Shown in pieces: positions 5,559 to 17,014 of a stretch of DNA of 64,000 nt; position 1 is the stretch's first letter; each line of letters starts with the position of its first letter. The DNA lies in the NCBI GenBank assembly GCA_000004695.1, contig CM000151.3:7328001-7392000 (forward strand), written 5' to 3'. The notes under the pieces are model-generated. The model saw nothing but the letters and a program-made list of their open reading frames with translations, had not been told where the DNA came from and did not search any database. The DNA comes from Dictyostelium discoideum. Lineage: Eukaryota. The position numbers and the translations under genes are program-made.

Positions 5559-8500
5559 ATGCAATACGTTAATGGTAATGATATTTCAAGTCAAAGTATT
5601 CATGAAGTTTTAGAACTTGCATTTTCAACAAAAATCCCATGGACAAAATTAGAATATGAATCAAGTGAAAAACATATAATACATTCCTATTCATCACATG
5701 AAAGAGGTATTTATTTAAGTAAAGGTGTTGCAGAATTTAATATTTCACCAGAAAATATGTATGAACTTTTATTGGATATTTCTTCAAGATCAAAAGTAAT
5801 TATTATTATTATTATTATTTAAATTTTTAATTAATTTTTTTTTTATTTTTTTTTTATTTATTTATTTATTTAAATAAATAAAAGAAAAAAAAAAAAATTA
5901 TTAATTACTAATTATTTTTTAAAATTTTAAAAAAAGTGGGATTTTCATTGTAGAGAAGCACATATTATTGAAGAATATGATCATTTAAATCATATTATTC
6001 ATTTAAATTTTACAAATCCATTAATTAGTAATTTGGATATGAATTTATATAGAAGTTGTAAGTATGATCCACAAGAGAGATTATTTGTAATTGCTATGAG
6101 ATCAATTGAATTGGAGGATGGTGATGTTGATCAATTTGAATGTTTACCAAATGGATGGGTAATTCAAGGTTTAAGAGGACAAAAAGATAAATGTAAGATG
6201 ACATTCGTTCAACAATGTGATCTAAGAGATATAGAACTTCAACGTATTCCAGGTTATAAATCATTCAATAGTAAAGAGAGACTTGAGGATTTTCAATTTC
6301 TTACATTGTTTCCTGCCACTGTAAGTGGTAGACTTGCAAAGATTTTCGAATCTATAGAACTATACATATCAAACAATGTGAAGGATATTGAAACCAAGGA
6401 TATTCGTATCTCAATTATGGAAAAAGCAGAAAAGGAGGTAAATGAAATGTTTGGTACAACCAATCCAGACTATGGTTGGAAAATTTATTTAAAGAAATTG
6501 GATATGGAAATTCTAATTAAAAAGACAACCTCTGGTTACTATATGATTGGTAAGGGTAGTTTTTCTTCGAGGTATTCACCAGAGTTATTGGCTGATGTAC
6601 TCTATCAGAAGAATCCTTTCGAATGGGATACTTTTTATGATAAAACTAAATTGGTTGAAAGTATCAATAGTTCAATCAGAGAGGTCGAGGTTCATTATAG
6701 AATGTGGAGAAATACAATCACCATGAGATTGCTACAATCCGTTAAAAAAGGACCTGGTAATTTCTCATCGGTACATTGGAGAAGTATTTGTTCTCCAAAT
6801 TATCAAGTGGCTGATGGTATCGAAGTACATTATCTTCCTACTGCACTCTTAAACTATGGTTTAGGTGATGGTAGTTTCACAAGTTTCTTGGCGGCAATCG
6901 AGGTTAAAGGTTATCCAACTCCTTGGGAGGAAGAGATGGTAACTAAAATGTTTGCTGCTAGAATCATTTCAAATCAAAATAGTATCATAAATCATGTAAA
7001 TAAATTAACAGGTGGTTCAGAGATGATAAGAGAATTACCTGTTATTCCTTCAGTTCAACATCATTGTGGTGATGTTGGTTCTCATATTGGTACTCCTCAA
7101 GTCTATAATGCAATGGTCGAAAATTTTGCTGATATACTTTTAGATGAAGGTAATAAAGATGGAAATGTAGTTTCTTCAAAAAATAAAAGAAAAAGAAATA
7201 AAAATAATGAAAATAAAAATAATAATAATGATAATATAATTGATGAAGAAATTGAACAAGAGGAGGAAAATATTGAAAAAGATCAACAACAAACCCAACA
7301 ACAACAAACTCAAAAACAACAACAACAACAACAACAACAACAAAAAACACAACAACAACCACAACAGCAACAACAACAACCACAAGAACAACAACAAAAT
7401 CACTCACAACTAAAAAAAGAAATCAAACCTACAAGACCAAGTATTCGTTTTACCTATTTATTAAGTAACAGTAGTAGTGGACAACGTCCAATTGCTTGGT
7501 ATGAATCAAAAAAACAACCATTCTTATTTTTGGTTAGTGATAGTAGTGAGAGAAAAGGAAAGATTCAAAGAAAGACTTATTATTTCTCAAATTCAGGTTT
7601 TGATAATTTACCAGAGGAAGTGGTTCAAATTATATTTTCCAATTTATCGGCAATCAATATTGTCAACTTATCATTAGTTTGTAAAAGATTTAAAATGGCA
7701 ACTGATAGTCCAATTCTTTGGAAAAATCTTTATAAAAGTAATCCATTATTTCATAAAAAGACACCAAAAAGAAAACAAATCATTCATTCAAATCTAAGTA
7801 ATGATGAAAATAAAGTAAATTCAAATTCTGGTGATTCTGCTGATGGTTCATCAAGCCAAGAAGAAGAAGAACAACAACAACAAAATCAACAACAAAATCA
7901 ACAACAAAATCAACAACAACAACAACAACAAACATTTGACCTTTCAAATATTAATTTAAATGATCCAATATCATTATTAATGGTATTTACAAATGGAATA
8001 ATTCCTCAAAATTTATCACCAACTGAAATAATAAATGTTGGTGGAATAGTGTCTCAAATTGATTTGAATGATCTTTCAAACGTTGAAACTCTTATTCAAC
8101 AATTACCTCATCAAGTTTTATCATTGATTCAAATGAATACACTTGATGCAAAGATTCAACATTTATCAATGATTAGTGGAATGCCAGCAACCATTGGTCA
8201 AGAATCACCAATCAATAAAAACTCTTCAGATAATCCAAAACCAAATGCATACAATAAAAGAGATAACAACTCTTATATTCCTGATGAAGAGTTTATTAAT
8301 TGGAAATCACATTACACTGAAAAACATAAGCAATCAAAGAGATGGGTTAATATGGAACCAATTCGTATCACCCCTCTAAAGGGTCACAATAGGGCAATCA
8401 AAGCTGTAAAGAGTGAGGGTAATTCAGCTATCACCGTATCAACAGAGAAAAAAATCAAATTTTGGAATTTAAACACTGGTCAATGTATTGGAGACTACGA

Positions 8501-9443
8501 AGGTGAATCAGGTGTTCTCTCTGTAGAGTATGATCACACTCAAAAGTCATCTTGTATTTGGCCATTGTCAGATTATACCAAAGTCCACATTGGCCATAAG
8601 AATGGTACCGTCACTATGGTTGATTTCATTGAACAACCAATTGAAGTTATTCATACATCAAGACCAACCAATTTGGCTGATGGTTTCGATTTCACCTTTC
8701 CTGGTAAATATTTGATTTGGGAACACACAATCATTCACTATTGGGATGTTGAAACAAGTACACTCTTGTGGAATGAACTAAATGCTCACACAAAGAAAAT
8801 CACTCAATCAAAGATTGTCGCACAACATGAACTTTCTAATAAAGGTATCGTATTCACAACTAGCTCTGATAAATCTGCAAAAGTTTGGGATTTAACAAAT
8901 GGTACTTGTATAAATACTTTGGTTGGCCATTCATATGCCGTCAATTGTATTGAACCAATTGGTGACTATATGGCTTTGACAGGTTCCACTGATAAAACTC
9001 TTAAACTTTGGGATCTTAGACAAGCCTCAACATTTATATCTAGTTACTCTACTAAACACACTGGTCCAATTAGATGTATTTCCTATCAAGAAAAGAATGG
9101 TATTGTTTTAAGTGGTAGTGATGATGGTTCAATCATTGCATTTAACTTGGATAATTGGAATCTTTCAAATATCTCTGTTGTTAAAAAACCAATCTTTAAT
9201 AATGTTATTGGTAATATTGGTACAACAACAACAACAACTACTACTACCACTACAACTACAACTACTACTACTTCAACTACAAATAATACTAATGTACCAG
9301 AGATTCCAAAGATTAATTTAGGTACTTTTAAGGATTCCAAAAGACTTCATAATCATGAATCTGCTGTAACTTGCATTGAATCTGATGAAGCTGGTTTTAT
9401 TAGTGGATCACAAAATGGATTGGTTTTGAGATGGGACTTTTAA
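5559..9443 (+). CDS. START (StAR-related lipid-transfer) domain + F-box + C-terminal WD40-repeat protein, ~1216 aa with polyQ/polyT inserts
   Basis: Exons 5559..5795 and 5937..9443. Donor AAA|gtaatt at 5796; the 141-nt AT intron ends ..aaaaag; exon 2 starts TGG GAT in the same frame, giving the junction ..SSRSK|WDFHCREAHIIEEYDHL. START-like N-terminal region (GVAEFNISPENMYELLLD.., ..RLFVIAMRSIELEDGD.., ..KMTFVQQCDLRDI..). F-box motif LPEEVVQIIFSNLSAINIVNLSLVCKRFKMATDSPILWKNLY. WD repeats include GHNRAIKAV..KIKFWNLNTG, GHSYAVNCIEP..TDKTLKLWDLR and LSGSDDGSIIAFNL. Confidence 0.75.
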
Positions 9444-9817
9444 GTTAGGTTTCCAATTTTATTACAATCATCAAAATAAATTAAACAACAAAAAAAAAAA
9501 TAAAAAAATAAAAATAATTTATTTATGTATTTTTTGTCAAAGATTTATATTATTTATATAAAATTTGTTTTATTTTTTATTTTTTTTTTAGTTTTTTAGT
9601 TTTTGATTTAATTTTAAATTAACCAATTCGATAGATTTAAAAAAAAAGAGATAAAAAATAAAAAAAAATCGATTTATTTTTATAAAAATAAAGTTTGGAT
9701 TGAATTGATTTCTACTTTTATCATTATTATTATTATTATTATTATTATTTATTATTAATTTATTATTATTTATTATTATTTGTTATTTATTATTATTTAT
9801 TTATTATTTCTTATTTA

Positions 9818-10487
9818 CTAATTAATACCCCAAACCTCAACAACATAAGGTTTGAAATCATTTTCCTTTGAGAGTACTGTATTATTAAAAGTTTCGGAAG
9901 GACCTGAATAACCGTGAAGGAATTCATTATCCATCCATAATCCAAACATTGAACCACCACCAATTGAAATATAATCGTGACTTGCATAAATGAACATGTC
10001 ATTCTCTTTTGTCCATCGGAAGATATCGAAATCTGGATATATTTTGAATAAGAAAGTTTCACCACTACCAAAGAATACATCTTTTCTAGGTTCAACACGG
10101 TCAGATAAAAATGCACCAAAAATGTATCCATTCTCATCTTGAATCAAAAGAATGGATTGTTCAACTGTTTTGATTCTTTTATAAAAAGTGATGAAAGAAA
10201 CACCGTCGTTGGTGGTGTTGAAGAGTAATTCAATATCTGAGCCTTGAGTACGAATTGGAAGATAATGACGAAGTTTTTTATAGATTTCTGGTGTCATTAA
10301 TATTTTCTCTTGGAATTGATATTTAGTTTGATCTTGTAATAATTTTGGTGTTGTTGAGAAAGTCTCATCAAAAGAGGAGGCTAATGAATCACTAGATACA
10401 AGGGATCTAATATTATTATGACTACCATTTCTCCAATGATTAATTGAAATGGGTGCTGTTGGTTTTATACCTGTTGTAGTAACAGTG

Positions 10488-10519
<32 letters not shown>

Positions 10520-11324
10520 GGTAGTATTATTATTATTATTATTAATCGATAATGGTGCAATAACTGTTTGTTGACTATTGAAAGAACCTGTTAAATTTGG
10601 ACTTGAGGTTTGAGGTGAAAATTTACTATCAACAATCAATTGTTTTAAATAAGAGAAACAAGTATGAACACTTGTAGGATCACTACCTCTGAAGAATAAA
10701 GTTTGAATAGAGTTATCTTTATGAATGATTGCATAAATACAAGGAAAGATTAAAACCTTTTTATTTGCTCCAGTGATTTCATCTGTAACTGTCATTTCTT
10801 CTTCCTCTTCCATTAAATTTAATTTTGAAATTTCTTTTTGAATAAAAGCATCATGTTCCTCTTCTTCTTTTTTACTTTTAACCTTTGATTTTACTTTACT
10901 ATTATTATCATTGCCAATGCCACCAACTGAGCTACCATTTATACCTTTGTTAATTTTATCTTTAATATAACGTTGTTCTTTATACCAATCTTTTGAAAAA
11001 TGAGCTAACCATTCCGATTTATCGAATAAATATTTACAACTAATAATATGTGAATATTCAGCATGTAATTGAACAGATTTACCTATTAAACCTGGTTCCA
11101 TTATTGATTGAAAGATTAATTGATATGGTGTAAGTGTAAGATGACCAACCACTTTTTGATTTCTCATAAAACAAACTAATTTTTCTTTAACTATACTTTC
11201 TTTACTAATTCTTTCAAATCTACTTGTTGCTGAGAATGGTATATGAATTGGTGGTTTATTATTTGTAATTGGATTATTACTTATACTATTACCACTATTA
11301 TTATTACTATTATTATTATTATTG

Positions 11325-11355
<31 letters not shown>

Positions 11356-11369
11356 TACTATTATTATTA

Positions 11370-11404
<35 letters not shown>

Positions 11405-12631
11405 GTTGTTATTATTATTACCATCATCAAATGCCATTTTAATTTCTTCTTTTGATGGTTTAAATAAATCATTTACATTTAAGGATGAACCACCTGATAA
11501 AGCTCTTCCTCTATTATTACTATTATTAGTAGGTGATAAACATTCGATACCACCACTACCATTAATACTACTACTACTAACACTACTACTACTATTATTA
11601 ATATCTAATGAATCAATTGAATCAGCAGATGTTGTAATAAGGGATGGTGGTTGTTCAATAATTTGTTCCTCATTTAAATTTAGATTCTTTTTCTTATAAA
11701 CCCATAATTGTGTACCAGGTTTAAGTAATTTTTCAGAATGTAATAATCTATTAGCTTGAATTAAAACATCTCTTGGCATTGAGAATTGAAGTGAAATACC
11801 AGTAAGTGTATCTTTTTCTTTTACAGTATAAAGTTGATAAATATAATTATTATTTGAAATATTTGGGGGTTCTGCAAATTTACAACCTATTGAACCTGAT
11901 CTCGTTCTATTACCGCCACTTGGTGTAAATCCACCACTATTATTATTATTATTATTATTATAATTACTATTATTTCCATTTAATAAAATATCAATTGATG
12001 GTGAAACTAAATTTGTTGAAGCACTTTGAGATCTTAATCTCTCATTGTTGTTATTATTACTAGCACCAATCATTGGTGATAAAGATGGACTATTTATTGG
12101 AGGTACAGCAGATGATAATGAAATTGGTGATAATGGTGTACCACCACTAAGTGGATGAGTTGTAACAGGTGTACCACTAGTTCCTTCATGATAAGGTGAA
12201 TTTAAATTGATTTTCTTTGGTTGATTATTTACATTCTTTGGTATTCTCTTTTGAATGGTTGGTGAATCTAATAGATTGGTGATCTCTGGGAAATGAGATT
12301 TATTTGATTTATAAAATGATGAAATCAATGCCAACAAGTGATAAAGATACGGTTTTTTTTTATCCTTTAATTGACTTGCTAATTTATCCAATTTCTTCTT
12401 TAATTTAACTTTAAAATCTGTAATTGCCATTGTTGAATCACTAAAAACAATATCAAATGATGGTGCTGCTGATGGATATAAAAATGGGAATAAAATGATC
12501 ACTACAAATTTTCTATTATCAACATTTGCAATACAAACTCTATCTGCTAATGATAATTTTTCAAATGTAACATATTCAAATTTCTCTGTAATTATATTAC
12601 CAAGTTCTTGATGTAAATCTAATGGTTTATG

Positions 12632-12713
<82 letters not shown>

Positions 12714-14251
12714 GTTATAAATGGTGATTTTTTATTTAAATTTGAAATATCTTCTTCATCTGTACTTTCCTCTAATTCATTTGATAACATTTTATTCATT
12801 AAATCTTGTGATTCTTGAGAAATTCTAATATTAGTTGGTAATACTAATTTTGGAGGACCATCTTCCTTTGTAAAGATATCAATCATTTCATTTGTAATTC
12901 TCCACATATTGAATTGATTATCTTTACCAATTGATGTTACATAATGTTGTTTTTCACCACCTGCTACTTCAGTTGTTCTCCAATCAAAATTTAATATAGT
13001 ATCTTTATGTCCACCTGATAATGAAAGTATTGGATGCTCTGAACATTTTGCATTCCTAAATTGAATATCATTATATGATCCCTTTGATGAAATTGAACCA
13101 ATAATATCATTATTAACAAATGGCTAAAAAAAAAAAAATAATAAATAAATAAATATTAAATTAATACTTTTATTATTATTTCCAATTGATCAATGATATT
13201 TTTAAAAATAACAAGGTGTATATATAAATATACATACAAGGAATCTAGCGATATTACAAGTTGAATCTATATTATATCTATGTAATAAATTACTTGGAGG
13301 TGTTACATCCCAAACTTTTACACATTTTTCAGTTGGGCCACATGTTAATAGTTGATTTCTTTCCTTTGGACTCCATTCAATATTTGAAATTGAACCTATA
13401 TGTGCTGAAACACATGATAATGGTGATCCAAATTTCTATAAAAAAAAAAAAAAAAAATAAAAAAAAAAAAAAATGTTATTAATAAGTGTTGTTATAAAAA
13501 TATTAGAGTTTTTATTAATAATAATAATAATTACTCTTATATCCCAAATATTAAATTCACTAGCATTTGAAGTTGCTAGCATTGTACTTGAATTTGGATT
13601 CCAAGCGATTTGAGATAAATTTGATCTTGCTTTAAAGTTTGTACTAATTCCACCACTACCTTGAGTACGTTCTCTAATATCGAAAATATTTGCCATACAA
13701 TCAGAGCTTGCACTAGCGATTAAATTGGTCTCTTGTGTATTCCATGAGAGTGATGTAATATGTCTAATATGTGATTTAGAGAATTTAACAATCAATTTCT
13801 CATCTCTAACATTCCAAAGATAAATTGAATAATCCTTTAATGATGATGATACTAATAAATGTGATTCAGATTTATTTGTACTCCATTTTAATAAATCACA
13901 TTCAATCTCTTTAGAATTTGATTTTAATTTCTTAAAAATACATGGTGTTGTTGTTGGTGATGATGTTGTGGTTGTTGTCGATGATGATGATGATGAATGA
14001 TGTGATGATAAAAAACCTTTACTAATATTATTACTACTACTACTTGCTTCATCTATAATACTGATTTTATCATCTTGTGTATCCTTTGGTAAATTCAATA
14101 TGAATAAACTTCTCTCACTTGAGATTGCAACATGTTCACCTGTTAAATCAACTGCCAATGATGAGAATTTATATTTATTCTTTTTATCTAAACATGTTGA
14201 TACAATTGGTTGGAATGAATTTTGTTTAAACTGATTTGTACCATCCATCAT
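9818..14251 (-). CDS. WD40-repeat N-terminus fused to LysM + GRAM-like + C-terminal TLDc domain (OXR1/NCOA7-like oxidation-resistance family), ~1400 aa
   Basis: Exons (minus) are 14251..13535, 13435..13238 and 13123..9818. Exon 1 ends ..NIWDIR|gtaatt; its intron ends ..ttttatag. Exon 2 is KFGSPLSCVSAHIGSISNIEWSPKE..CVKVWDV..IARFL|gtatgt; the second intron ends ..tttttttttag. Exon 3 (PFVNNDIIGS..SLSGGHKDTILNFDW..) runs in frame into the 1029-aa ORF. LysM-like segment YTVKEKDTLTGISLQFSMPRDVLIQANRL..KPGTQLWVY. GRAM-like segment KLVCFMRNQKVVGHLTLTPYQLIFQS. TLDc region YLPIRTQGSDIELLFNTTNDGVSFITFYKRI..LLIQDENGYIFGAFLS..GSGETFLFKIYP..IYASHDYISIGGG..GLWMDNEFLHGYSGPSETFNN. Stop at 9820-9818. Confidence 0.7.
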
Positions 14252-14421
14252 TAATATTAAATTTTATTTTTGATTTTTTTTTTTTTTTTATTTATTTTTT
14301 GATTTTTTTATTTTTTAACGAGAATTGAAATGAATAATTATTATTATTATTAAAAATTATTATTATTATTATTATTATTATAAATTATAAATCCATTAAG
14401 TAATAATTATTATTGGTTCTG

Positions 14422-14499
<78 letters not shown>

Positions 14500-15074
14500 A
14501 AAAAAAAAAAAAAAAAAAATTTAAAAAAAAAATAAAAAAAAAAAAAAAAAAAAATCATATTGTTGGTTAACCCTAATTACCAAATCTAAACAAGAAAAAA
14601 ACAACTTGTCAATTAGTTTTTTTTATATATTTTTTTTTTTATTAATCTTTTCCAGTTTTATTTGTTTGATATTATTATTATTTAATTATTTTTTTTTACA
14701 ATTTTTTTTTTTTTTTTTTTCAAACTCCGATACTATAATTTCATTTTCAAGGTATTATTTTTTTTATTTATTATTATTTTATAATTTTTTATTATTTTTA
14801 ATTATTATTATTTTTATTAATAATTTTAAAATTTTATTATTAAAAATTATCTTTTAAAAATAATATTCATTGCTCATTTTCAATAAAAAATGATTTCCGA
14901 AAAAACGAAATACACCTAAAATTTCCTTAAGATATTTTTTATTTTTTTTTTCCAAAAAAAAATAAAATTTTTAAGATATTTTTTAAAAAATAAAAATTGA
15001 GATGTCTTTTTTTTAAAAAAAAAGGAATTTCCTAAAATTATTTATTTTGTGTTGATTACTAATTTTTTTTTTTT

Positions 15075-15107
<33 letters not shown>

Positions 15108-15112
15108 TATTA

Positions 15113-17014
15113 TTAAGAATTTGAATGATTTTTACCTGATAAAACTCTGTCTAAATTAAAAGCAGCACTAATTAAACTTAAATGAGTGAAAGCTTGTGGA
15201 AAATTACCTAAAGCTTCACCACCAATACCAATTTCTTCAGAGAATAAACCCAAATGATTTGCATAACCTAACATTTCATCAAATATTAAACGAGCTTTAA
15301 CTAGATATTCTTTATTGACAACGGAAGCTCTTGTTAAACTTTCGATTAACCAAAATGTACAAATATTGAAAGTACCTTCTTCACCATCCAAACCATCGGT
15401 TGCAATATGATCATCATGACCATGGGTTAGATTATAACGAAATACCAAAGAGTTTGCAACTAGACCTCCTTCTTCCACTGGTTTGAGTATTGCTTCTAAT
15501 GTTGCTAAATTTCTTGGGTCTGATGGAGCCATAAAGAAAACCAACGACATTATCAATGTTGAAGCATCCAATGCTTTACTACCATAGAATTGAGTAATCT
15601 TTGTCCATTTATCACGTGGGGCTGGGAATGATCTACGATCTGCCAAACGCAATCCTCTATCCAATGCCACCCAACACATTATCTTGGAGTAGGTGAAATG
15701 TTGTTTACCACTTCTAACTTCCCAAATACCTTCATCCTTGGTTTGATAATTATCAGCCACCCAATCGACCATCTTCCTAATATGTAACCAAAAATCGTAG
15801 GAAACCAACGACCCATACTTATTGGAGAGATAAATCGAATCCATAAACTCGCCGAAAATGTCCATTTGAACTTGATTGATTGCATCATTACCAACTCTAA
15901 CCGGCTTGCTATCTCTATAGCCTGAAAGATGGTCCAATGTGTATTCGGGGATTTTATCATCGCCATGAATGCTATACATGACACGCACGGGCATGCTTCT
16001 TTTTGGGTCGTCATAAACTGCTTCGGCACATCTTGTTTCCAACCATTTCATAAATGCATGTGCTTCTTCAATGAAGCCAATTCTAATCAAACCATAGACA
16101 GAGAAACTTGAATCTCTCAACCAAGCGTATCTGTAATCCCAATTTCTAGGCCCACCCAATCCCTCTGGTAGCGAACAAGTTGGCGAGGCAATGATTGCAC
16201 CCGTTGGAGCGAATGTCATAAGCTTCAAACATAGTGCACTACGTTCCACGATTTCCCTCCATCTTCCCTTGTAAGTGCATTTCTCCAACCATTTTTGCCA
16301 GTAGAATATGGTGCCCATGAATAATTCATTCTCCAATTTGCCAATATCCTCTGGAACACGATAGAGATGCTTTGGAAACAAGTCTACACTATCAAACGAT
16401 TCCTTTAGTATGAACACCACCACATCATTCTCTTTGACAGTGAAGACCGATTCTAGGAACCCCCCATTTCCATCATTGATAAGTGTCATTGGAATCTTTG
16501 ATATTAAATCTAAATTGATCTTTGTAGGCTCAGATTGAATATTGTAACCAAATTCTGTTTTCTCCATTTTATGTTTATCTAATGCGAAATTGAATGTTGG
16601 TTTGAATATCATTTTCATATCTAATTTGCCTCTGATTCCTTTAACTTTTCTAACTAACCATTTCGAGCCTTTTCCATCTACAACTGGCATATAATCAATC
16701 ACTGATGCTACCGATTCAACTAAATGAAATCTACTCTGAAGTACATTTGTATCTGGCCAATAGCTTTGCTTGGTTTTGGTTTGTTTACACTTCGATCTCA
16801 ATGTTTCTGGTGCAATACGCCAATGTCCACCCTTTTCACAATCTAACAATGAGCAAAACATAGCTGGTGAATCAAAATGCGGCCAACACATAAAATTAAT
16901 ATCAGCATGAATTGATATCAATGCACTTGTTAACATATTTCCAATAACTCCATGATTTTCAATTAATGGATAAGATTCACAAACTCCATCAATTTCAATT
17001 TCATTACTTGCCAT
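15113..17014 (-). CDS. glycoside hydrolase family 15 (glucoamylase/trehalase-like, bacterial/archaeal type) protein, 633 aa, intronless
   Basis: Single ORF from ATG at 17014 to TAA at 15113. GH15 signatures: N-terminal beta-sandwich region (ENHGVIGNMLTSALISIHADINFMCWPHFDSPAMFCSLLD..GGHWRIAP) and catalytic (alpha/alpha)6 motifs (YRYAWLRDSSFSVYGL, NQVQMDIFGEF, EGIWEVRSGKQHFTYSKIMCWVALDRG, CTFWLIESL). GC content and third-position GC are clearly above neighbouring genes, and the ORF has no polyN/polyQ tracts or introns. Confidence 0.8.
   Translation of the reverse strand: MASNEIEIDGVCESYPLIENHGVIGNMLTSALISIHADINFMCWPHFDSPAMFCSLLDCEKGGHWRIAPETLRSKCKQTKTKQSYWPDTNVLQSRFHLVESVASVIDYMPVVDGKGSKWLVRKVKGIRGKLDMKMIFKPTFNFALDKHKMEKTEFGYNIQSEPTKINLDLISKIPMTLINDGNGGFLESVFTVKENDVVVFILKESFDSVDLFPKHLYRVPEDIGKLENELFMGTIFYWQKWLEKCTYKGRWREIVERSALCLKLMTFAPTGAIIASPTCSLPEGLGGPRNWDYRYAWLRDSSFSVYGLIRIGFIEEAHAFMKWLETRCAEAVYDDPKRSMPVRVMYSIHGDDKIPEYTLDHLSGYRDSKPVRVGNDAINQVQMDIFGEFMDSIYLSNKYGSLVSYDFWLHIRKMVDWVADNYQTKDEGIWEVRSGKQHFTYSKIMCWVALDRGLRLADRRSFPAPRDKWTKITQFYGSKALDASTLIMSLVFFMAPSDPRNLATLEAILKPVEEGGLVANSLVFRYNLTHGHDDHIATDGLDGEEGTFNICTFWLIESLTRASVVNKEYLVKARLIFDEMLGYANHLGLFSEEIGIGGEALGNFPQAFTHLSLISAAFNLDRVLSGKNHSNS

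Follow-up and report, generated by a model that had tools for sequence, protein, structure and literature searches.

A predicted Dictyostelium discoideum gene joining a WDR59/Sea3-like propeller and RWD head to an OXR1-type LysM, PH-like and TLDc body

Whether a long open reading frame (ORF) for a TLDc protein in Dictyostelium discoideum is a gene of its own or the last part of a larger gene that begins with a WD40 propeller, and what such a combined protein might do, is the question raised by a locus on the minus strand of contig CM000151.3 (assembly GCA_000004695.1, positions 7,328,001 to 7,392,000 of the forward strand). This whole stretch of 64,000 nucleotides (nt) is referred to here as the window, and positions are given in its own numbering. 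A preliminary description of the window had proposed one spliced gene fusing seven WD40 repeats to a LysM, GRAM-like and TLDc module. OXR1, NCOA7 and Drosophila mustard are LysM-GRAM-TLDc proteins that bind and regulate the V-ATPase. Comparative analysis of the locus predicts that one three-exon gene encodes a protein of 1406 amino acids (aa), in which a head made of a propeller and an RWD domain is followed by a body made of LysM, PH-like and TLDc domains. The coordinates of all features are collected in Table 1.

Gene structure and comparative support

Joining of the three exons yields 4221 nt, that is, 1406 codons and a stop with no internal stop codon. The ATG at 14251, both GT..AG introns (13534..13436 and 13237..13124) and the in-frame joining hold as proposed in the preliminary description, the length of which (1407 aa) agrees with the joined ORF, although that figure counts the stop. 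Retention of intron 1 would end translation at an in-frame TAG, and retention of intron 2 would also introduce in-frame stops. The guanine plus cytosine (GC) content is 27-31% in the exons versus 8% and 11% in introns 1 and 2, respectively. The frame of exon 3 is open from its acceptor at 13123, which lies 216 nt upstream of M12907 (the first ATG of a 1029-aa ORF), and the chance of finding 1101 stop-free codons at the local base composition is about 1e-44. A sliding GC profile confined intergenic-like DNA (5-14% GC) to the regions upstream of 14251 and downstream of 9818, and the only dips inside the gene were the two introns and two poly-Asn tracts. No AT-rich gap separates the two parts. 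The poly-Asn tracts of exon 3 (long AAT runs at 11281-11440 and 12630-12710, with a local GC content of about 11%) leave the frame intact and fall within linkers whose sequences do not align from one species to another.

Searches for the same fusion in other dictyostelids, as had been recommended, were successful. The same layout was found in D. purpureum, Polysphondylium violaceum, Cavenderia fasciculata, Synstelium polycarpum, Acytostelium subglobosum and one EukProt entry, and a family alignment was built from eight sequences (the window protein and seven orthologues). None of the seven orthologues, six dictyostelid species being among their sources, has an insertion or deletion relative to the spliced D. 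discoideum protein at the WDIR|KFGSPL or A(R/K)F(L/V)|PF junctions. The D. purpureum gene, which was annotated independently, has GT..AG introns at both D. discoideum codon boundaries, one of 80 nt at DIR|KFGSP and one of 74 nt at ARF(V/L)|PF. The tblastn segments of Cavenderia break at about the codon of the second intron, which implies an intron there.

Further support came from more distant organisms. Assembled from public sequencing data of one run, the more distant relative P0007 has all five parts (propeller, RWD, LysM, PH-like region and TLDc) within a single uninterrupted ORF of 4140 nt. Six relatives of it (P0170-P0175, 53-64% identical) have the same Pfam domains, and P0173, whose locus was retrieved, is likewise a single ORF. 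Sequences of this lineage, which come from Logan, ENA and JGI assemblies, are GC-rich and intron-poor; the neighbouring TBP gene, with approximately 55-60% identity to all eukaryotes, is uninformative as to the taxon. A search with the family profile against 1.84 billion representative proteins also identified proteins with WD40, LysM and TLDc matches in Arcella intermedia (a UniRef entry), Nolandella sp. and two other assemblies, one of which showed a weak RWD match. In Nolandella this architecture is carried on a single Trinity transcript. A collection of 15 billion proteins did not contain the exact D. discoideum protein, nor did it yield an orthologue from D. discoideum, D. citrinum or D. 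firmibasis. Judged from the distribution of these sequences, the fusion is old, being present in Dictyostelia, Tubulinea (Arcella and Nolandella) and one further eukaryotic lineage (P0007), and the combination of a propeller-RWD head with an OXR1-type body is conserved across amoebae.

A different gene model would have a WD40 gene ending in the interval 13238-13123 and an OXR1-like gene starting from M12907 with its own promoter, the shared frame being a coincidence. The lengths of both introns, which are multiples of three, and the ATG of the 1029-aa ORF are compatible with it. Nevertheless, the boundary between two such genes would fall inside the WDR59-like head, which has its last blades at 13123-12887 and its RWD domain downstream of M12907, and the GC profile contains no intergenic stretch where one would be needed. 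Because of the orthologue junctions, the matching introns of D. purpureum, the intronless ORFs of P0007 and P0173 and the Nolandella transcript, together with the same architecture in the Arcella entry, the two-gene alternative is excluded for practical purposes and is considered extremely improbable. The preliminary proposal of one spliced gene was therefore upheld.

Relationships of the head and the body

The head extends well beyond a generic set of WD40 repeats. Pfam matched several beta-propeller families across aa 105-381, and the peptides CVKVWDV and SLSGGHKDTILNFDW, which had been cited as evidence that the bridging exons encode WD blades, are present and both align to WD blades of human WDR59. 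When aa 1-600 were compared with PDB sequences by phmmer, human WDR59 was the best of 346 matches (E 2e-32), with a collinear alignment over aa 116-577 that crosses both splice junctions and continues through the RWD domain. Yeast Sea3/Mtc5 also matched in this search (E 1.7e-19), and unrelated WD40 proteins reached 4e-16 or weaker. In an AlphaFold2 model of the Acytostelium orthologue, the head was predicted with a pLDDT (per-residue model confidence) of about 80-93; its 28 strands form seven four-stranded blades, in agreement with the seven repeats counted earlier, and its RWD domain has the alpha-beta4-alpha-alpha topology typical of this fold. The top Foldseek matches of the same model were Sea3 chains in SEA-complex structures (8ae6_Q, in the SEACIT wing, E 3e-28 over 510 columns), compared with about 1e-18 for generic WD40 proteins. 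Sea3 rather than WDR59 leads the fold search because the propeller and RWD of WDR59 are flexible and not resolved in the maps of human GATOR2 (PMC12507694).

The RWD domain was recognized mainly through its family. A profile of 13 sequences retrieved the RWD of human WDR59 (residues 387-491, E 6.5e-18) and Sea3 (1.2e-5), with IMPACT and E2 enzymes as weak further matches. On its own, the RWD of the window protein stayed below threshold (Pfam RWD E 0.57) and gave nothing significant against PDB by phmmer. An FPxxYPxxxPxF motif is common to the RWD of the window protein and canonical WDR59. In the search of 1.84 billion proteins, the best matches to the head outside the fusion family included a Balamuthia protein named 'GATOR complex protein wdr59' and a protein with WD40, RWD and zf-RING_16. 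These comparisons indicate that the head is homologous to the N-terminal part of WDR59/Sea3, namely the propeller and RWD unit known in yeast as Sea3-SIP. The plain WD40 propeller of the preliminary description is thus present, but the RWD domain and the WDR59/Sea3 relationship had been missed. A reading of the head as a generic WD40 domain was rejected, as WDR59/Sea3 was far ahead in the phmmer, Foldseek and RWD-profile comparisons.

In the yeast SEA complex, the propeller and RWD of Sea3 lie on the SEACIT wing, touching Sea1, Npr2 and Npr3, and the C-terminal region (SAP) forms part of SEACAT (PMC9646525). The window protein shares with WDR59 of human GATOR2 and Sea3/Mtc5 of yeast SEACAT an N-terminal seven-bladed propeller followed by RWD; however, it lacks the alpha-solenoid through which they pair with SEC13, the blade region that completes SEC13 and the C-terminal RING/zinc ribbon. 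The RWD is followed instead by low-complexity linkers, LysM, PH-like and TLDc domains, and the orthologue model contains no helical-repeat region. The RING/zinc-ribbon families (PF17120 and PF17034) were absent from the Pfam results for the window protein and for its orthologues P0001-P0007, whereas they were present in the canonical WDR59 proteins P0008, P0012 and P0033. Without solenoid and RING, the protein cannot be incorporated into the GATOR2 cage in the manner of WDR59.

The body is assigned by domain order and similarity to the OXR1/NCOA7 type, which also includes Drosophila mustard, with LysM, a PH/GRAM-like fold and a C-terminal TLDc. A Pfam scan detected both the LysM and the TLDc segments above cut-off, as expected from the preliminary description. 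The LysM domain has twelve invariant columns in the family and a beta-alpha-alpha-beta fold in the orthologue model. A model of aa 925-1145 of the window protein (pLDDT 74) shows a seven-strand sandwich with a C-terminal helix cap and a long inserted helical hairpin. Since no GRAM family was matched in the Pfam scan of the window protein and the predicted fold is PH-like, the 'GRAM-like' label is confirmed at the level of fold and not of family membership. The hairpin carries poly-Glu runs (KKEEEEHDAF ... MEEEEEM, aa 1056-1082, window 10793-10873); in Ncoa7 and Tldc2, poly-E motifs beside the TLDc reportedly tend to strengthen the interaction with the V-ATPase (PMC8608904).

The TLDc domain covers profile positions 3-169 of 170 in PF07534 (169.3 bits, cut-off 24.5). 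Its closest structures in PDB are zebrafish Oxr2 (2.9e-33) and NCOA7 (7e-31), followed by Skywalker (9e-22), yeast Oxr1 (6e-17) and mEAK7 (3e-15). Mutation of G815, S817, G845, G896, L926 or E938 of Ncoa7 abolishes or weakens V-ATPase binding (PMC8608904). Mapped through the alignment with Oxr2 (4ACJ), these six residues correspond to G1279, S1281, G1308, G1360, L1389 and E1401 of the window protein, all of which are identical; five are invariant in the eight-sequence alignment, and L1389 is missing only through a deletion in the P0005 model.

Several differences separate the window protein from characterized TLDc proteins. Compared with the usual LysM-GRAM-TLDc architecture of OXR1/NCOA7, it has an additional N-terminal propeller and RWD head of about 585 aa, and its PH-like domain contains the long helical insert. 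TBC1D24/Skywalker similarly places TLDc C-terminal to a large trafficking or signalling module, but that partner is a TBC Rab-GAP (GTPase-activating protein for Rab) and not a WDR59-like propeller with RWD, and neither LysM nor a PH-like domain is present. mEAK7 (TLDC1) is described in its abstract as lysosome-anchored, V-ATPase-binding and linked to mTOR signalling, and a possible V-ATPase-TOR connection at the lysosome would be a resemblance in working rather than membership. The TLDc of mEAK7 is a far weaker match (E 3e-15 versus 3e-33 for Oxr2), and no propeller, RWD or LysM was seen reported for mEAK7, although its sequence was not scanned.

Head and body, which are connected by long low-complexity linkers, also occur separately. 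The ten nearest relatives of the C-terminal half outside the fusion family contained LysM with TLDc, or TLDc alone, and none had a propeller. Two dictyostelid paralogues of the body (P0025 of Acytostelium and P0089 of Tieghemostelium) are headless and have unrelated upstream neighbour genes, which means that dictyostelids carry a stand-alone OXR1-like gene as well as the fusion. As each module thus exists alone, the gene is regarded as a true fusion of the two.

Feature coordinates and neighbouring genes

Table 1. Predicted features of the fusion locus, its surroundings in the window and related loci retrieved from other organisms
Feature	Position	Strand	Basis or remark
Whole coding region, 3 exons, 1406 aa + stop	9818..14251	-	Spliced coding sequence open, collinear with seven orthologues
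Exon 1, aa 1-239: start codon and first propeller part, ends ...NIWDIR	13535..14251	-	N-terminus aligns with orthologue N-termini
Intron 1, 99 nt, GTAATT..ATAG, 8% GC, phase 0	13436..13534	-	D. purpureum intron, identical boundary
Exon 2, aa 240-305: propeller blades including ..CVKVWDV..	13238..13435	-	Frame and orthologue alignment
Intron 2, 114 nt, GTATGT..TTAG, 11% GC, phase 0	13124..13237	-	D. purpureum intron, identical boundary
Exon 3, aa 306-1406 + stop: propeller end, RWD, LysM, PH-like, TLDc	9818..13123	-	Single open frame
Seven-bladed WD40 beta-propeller, WDR59/Sea3-like, aa ~12-384, spans both introns	12887..14218	-	phmmer, Foldseek, orthologue model
RWD domain, aa ~470-585, FPxLYPxxxPxF motif at aa 517-528	12284..12631	-	Family profile, orthologue model
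LysM domain, aa 737-780	11699..11830	-	Pfam PF01476, 28.7 bits, cut-off 20.9
PH-like ('GRAM-like') domain, aa ~945-1140, inserted helical hairpin with poly-Glu runs	10619..11206	-	Predicted fold
TLDc domain, OXR1/NCOA7 type, aa 1243-1405, extreme C-terminus	9824..10312	-	Pfam PF07534, E 9.5e-50
5' intergenic region toward DDB_G0277045, presumed promoter	14252..15112	.	5-14% GC, long poly-T/poly-A tracts
3' intergenic region shared with convergent F-box/WD40 gene	9444..9817	.	9-19% GC
Convergent 3' neighbour, 1136-aa ORF: F-box aa 523-568, C-terminal WD40 propeller aa ~785-1135	6033-9443	+	
DDB_G0277045, GH15 glucoamylase-type, trehalase-like N-terminal domain	15113-17014	-	ORF at 15116-17014 identical to AX4 protein
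P0007-lineage fusion loci, single ORF each	L001 3001-7140; L004 10001-13774		Conserved synteny: leucine-rich repeat (LRR) gene, TBP gene, fusion gene
Headless LysM-TLDc paralogue P0025, Acytostelium	L006 5001-6575		Has PH-like region; 54% identical to C-terminal half of Acytostelium fusion
Headless LysM-TLDc paralogue P0089, Tieghemostelium	L005 5001-7784		More divergent than P0025

In the presumed promoter region, exceptionally long poly-T runs are located at 14385-14560, about 130-310 nt upstream of the start codon, with 5% GC over 150 nt. In the F-box/WD40 neighbour, no Pfam family matches the first ~380 aa, and the F-box is directly preceded by a Gln-rich tract. The product of DDB_G0277045 has 633 aa in AX4 and one other D. 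discoideum strain, and 653 aa in six named cluster members, which come from further D. discoideum strains and from D. citrinum, D. firmibasis and D. dimigraforme. Some of the gene models may thus use another start or exon.

Possible function and significance

The protein is considered, on balance and with some reserve, to be a V-ATPase-binding TLDc regulator that would be targeted through its WDR59-derived head, possibly to GATOR1. For the body, it is quite likely by analogy with yeast Oxr1, NCOA7, OXR1 and mEAK7 that the TLDc domain would bind the V-ATPase and modulate its assembly or activity. Yeast Oxr1 promotes disassembly of the V-ATPase, and NCOA7, OXR1 and mEAK7 bind the pump. A mainly antioxidant or stress-protective role, as in the classical view of OXR1, which would be independent of the V-ATPase and would leave the head as a general scaffold, appears improbable. 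The automatic name 'Oxidation resistance protein 1' given to orthologues and the importance of the same Ncoa7 residues for protection against oxidative stress (PMC8608904) are in line with such a role; however, no catalytic antioxidant motif is known or was seen in the window protein, and all of the yeast and mammalian TLDc proteins tested bind the V-ATPase, with structures placing TLDc on V1.

For the head, a role as a targeting or regulatory module is proposed, which would decide where or when TLDc acts on the V-ATPase. Its likeliest single partner would be a GATOR1/SEACIT-type complex on the endolysosomal membrane, because the head is homologous to the SEACIT-binding unit of Sea3 and because D. 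discoideum has a working sestrin-GATOR2-TORC1 pathway (PMC11204349). A head bound to GATOR1 might couple the state of the V-ATPase to Rag/TORC1, or might compete with canonical WDR59 for GATOR1. This remains a tentative suggestion with a rather low probability, because the head is divergent and canonical WDR59 co-exists in other dictyostelids. Somewhat more speculative still is the idea of a 'Rosetta-stone' fusion, in which the head would dock on GATOR1 (Nprl2/Nprl3/DEPDC5) while TLDc holds the V-ATPase, one polypeptide in amoebae bridging the pump and the Rag-GAP that governs TORC1.

A number of observations weigh against targeting to GATOR1 or call for caution over the protein as a whole. 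The head keeps 53 of the 83 positions conserved among canonical WDR59 proteins, a count that says nothing specific about the GATOR1 interface, and sequence comparison marks it as a divergent paralogue of WDR59. In a neighbour-joining tree of heads and canonical WDR59, the fusion clade received 15/100 and the grouping of fusion with amoebozoan WDR59 3/100 bootstrap support, values too low to place the head. Canonical WDR59 with its RING is encoded by a separate gene in Acytostelium and Cavenderia (P0008 and P0012), so the head would have been free to acquire another partner. In addition, the gene model of the D. discoideum protein rests on comparative evidence, and the TLDc part of the full-length orthologue model is of low confidence.

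Alternatively, the protein may regulate the V-ATPase in the manner of OXR1 with a WDR59-derived head that has acquired a new role, binding a partner unrelated to GATOR1 and having no link to TORC1. The divergence of the head, the co-existing canonical gene and the weakly supported tree all suit this explanation, as does the resemblance of RWD domains to E2 enzymes (PMC9646525), also seen in the weak profile matches to E2 enzymes and IMPACT. Candidate partners would be another longin/roadblock complex, a component of the ubiquitin system reached via the E2-like RWD, or a membrane coat. On the other hand, WDR59/Sea3 leads by many orders of magnitude as a match for the combination of propeller and RWD in this order, and the two-domain head corresponds exactly to the SEACIT-interacting unit of Sea3. 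A new function of this kind is hence regarded as a serious but less probable explanation than a TLDc regulator targeted through its WDR59-derived head, possibly to GATOR1.

In the literature searched, no description was found of a TLDc protein with a propeller, an RWD domain or a WDR59-like head, nor of this Dictyostelium gene, and a 2026 review of TLDc proteins makes no mention of WD40, amoebae, Dictyostelium, GATOR or mTORC1. The earlier remark that TLDc proteins are not known to carry WD40 repeats is accordingly true of this literature but not of the databases, in which orthologues are already deposited under the automatic names 'hypothetical protein', 'WD40 repeat-containing protein' and 'Oxidation resistance protein 1'; novelty therefore does not extend to the sequence or its Pfam domains.

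How the state of the V-ATPase is communicated to Rag/TORC1 remains a matter of debate, and the role of TLDc proteins as regulators of the V-ATPase was recognized only recently. A conserved fusion in a genetically tractable organism offers a testable hypothesis of a physical link between the V-ATPase and GATOR1, with a single gene to manipulate. If this link were true, separate TLDc proteins and GATOR components may cooperate likewise in other eukaryotes. Even if the head has another partner, the fusion would indicate that a coatomer-type module of propeller and RWD can serve to target TLDc regulators.

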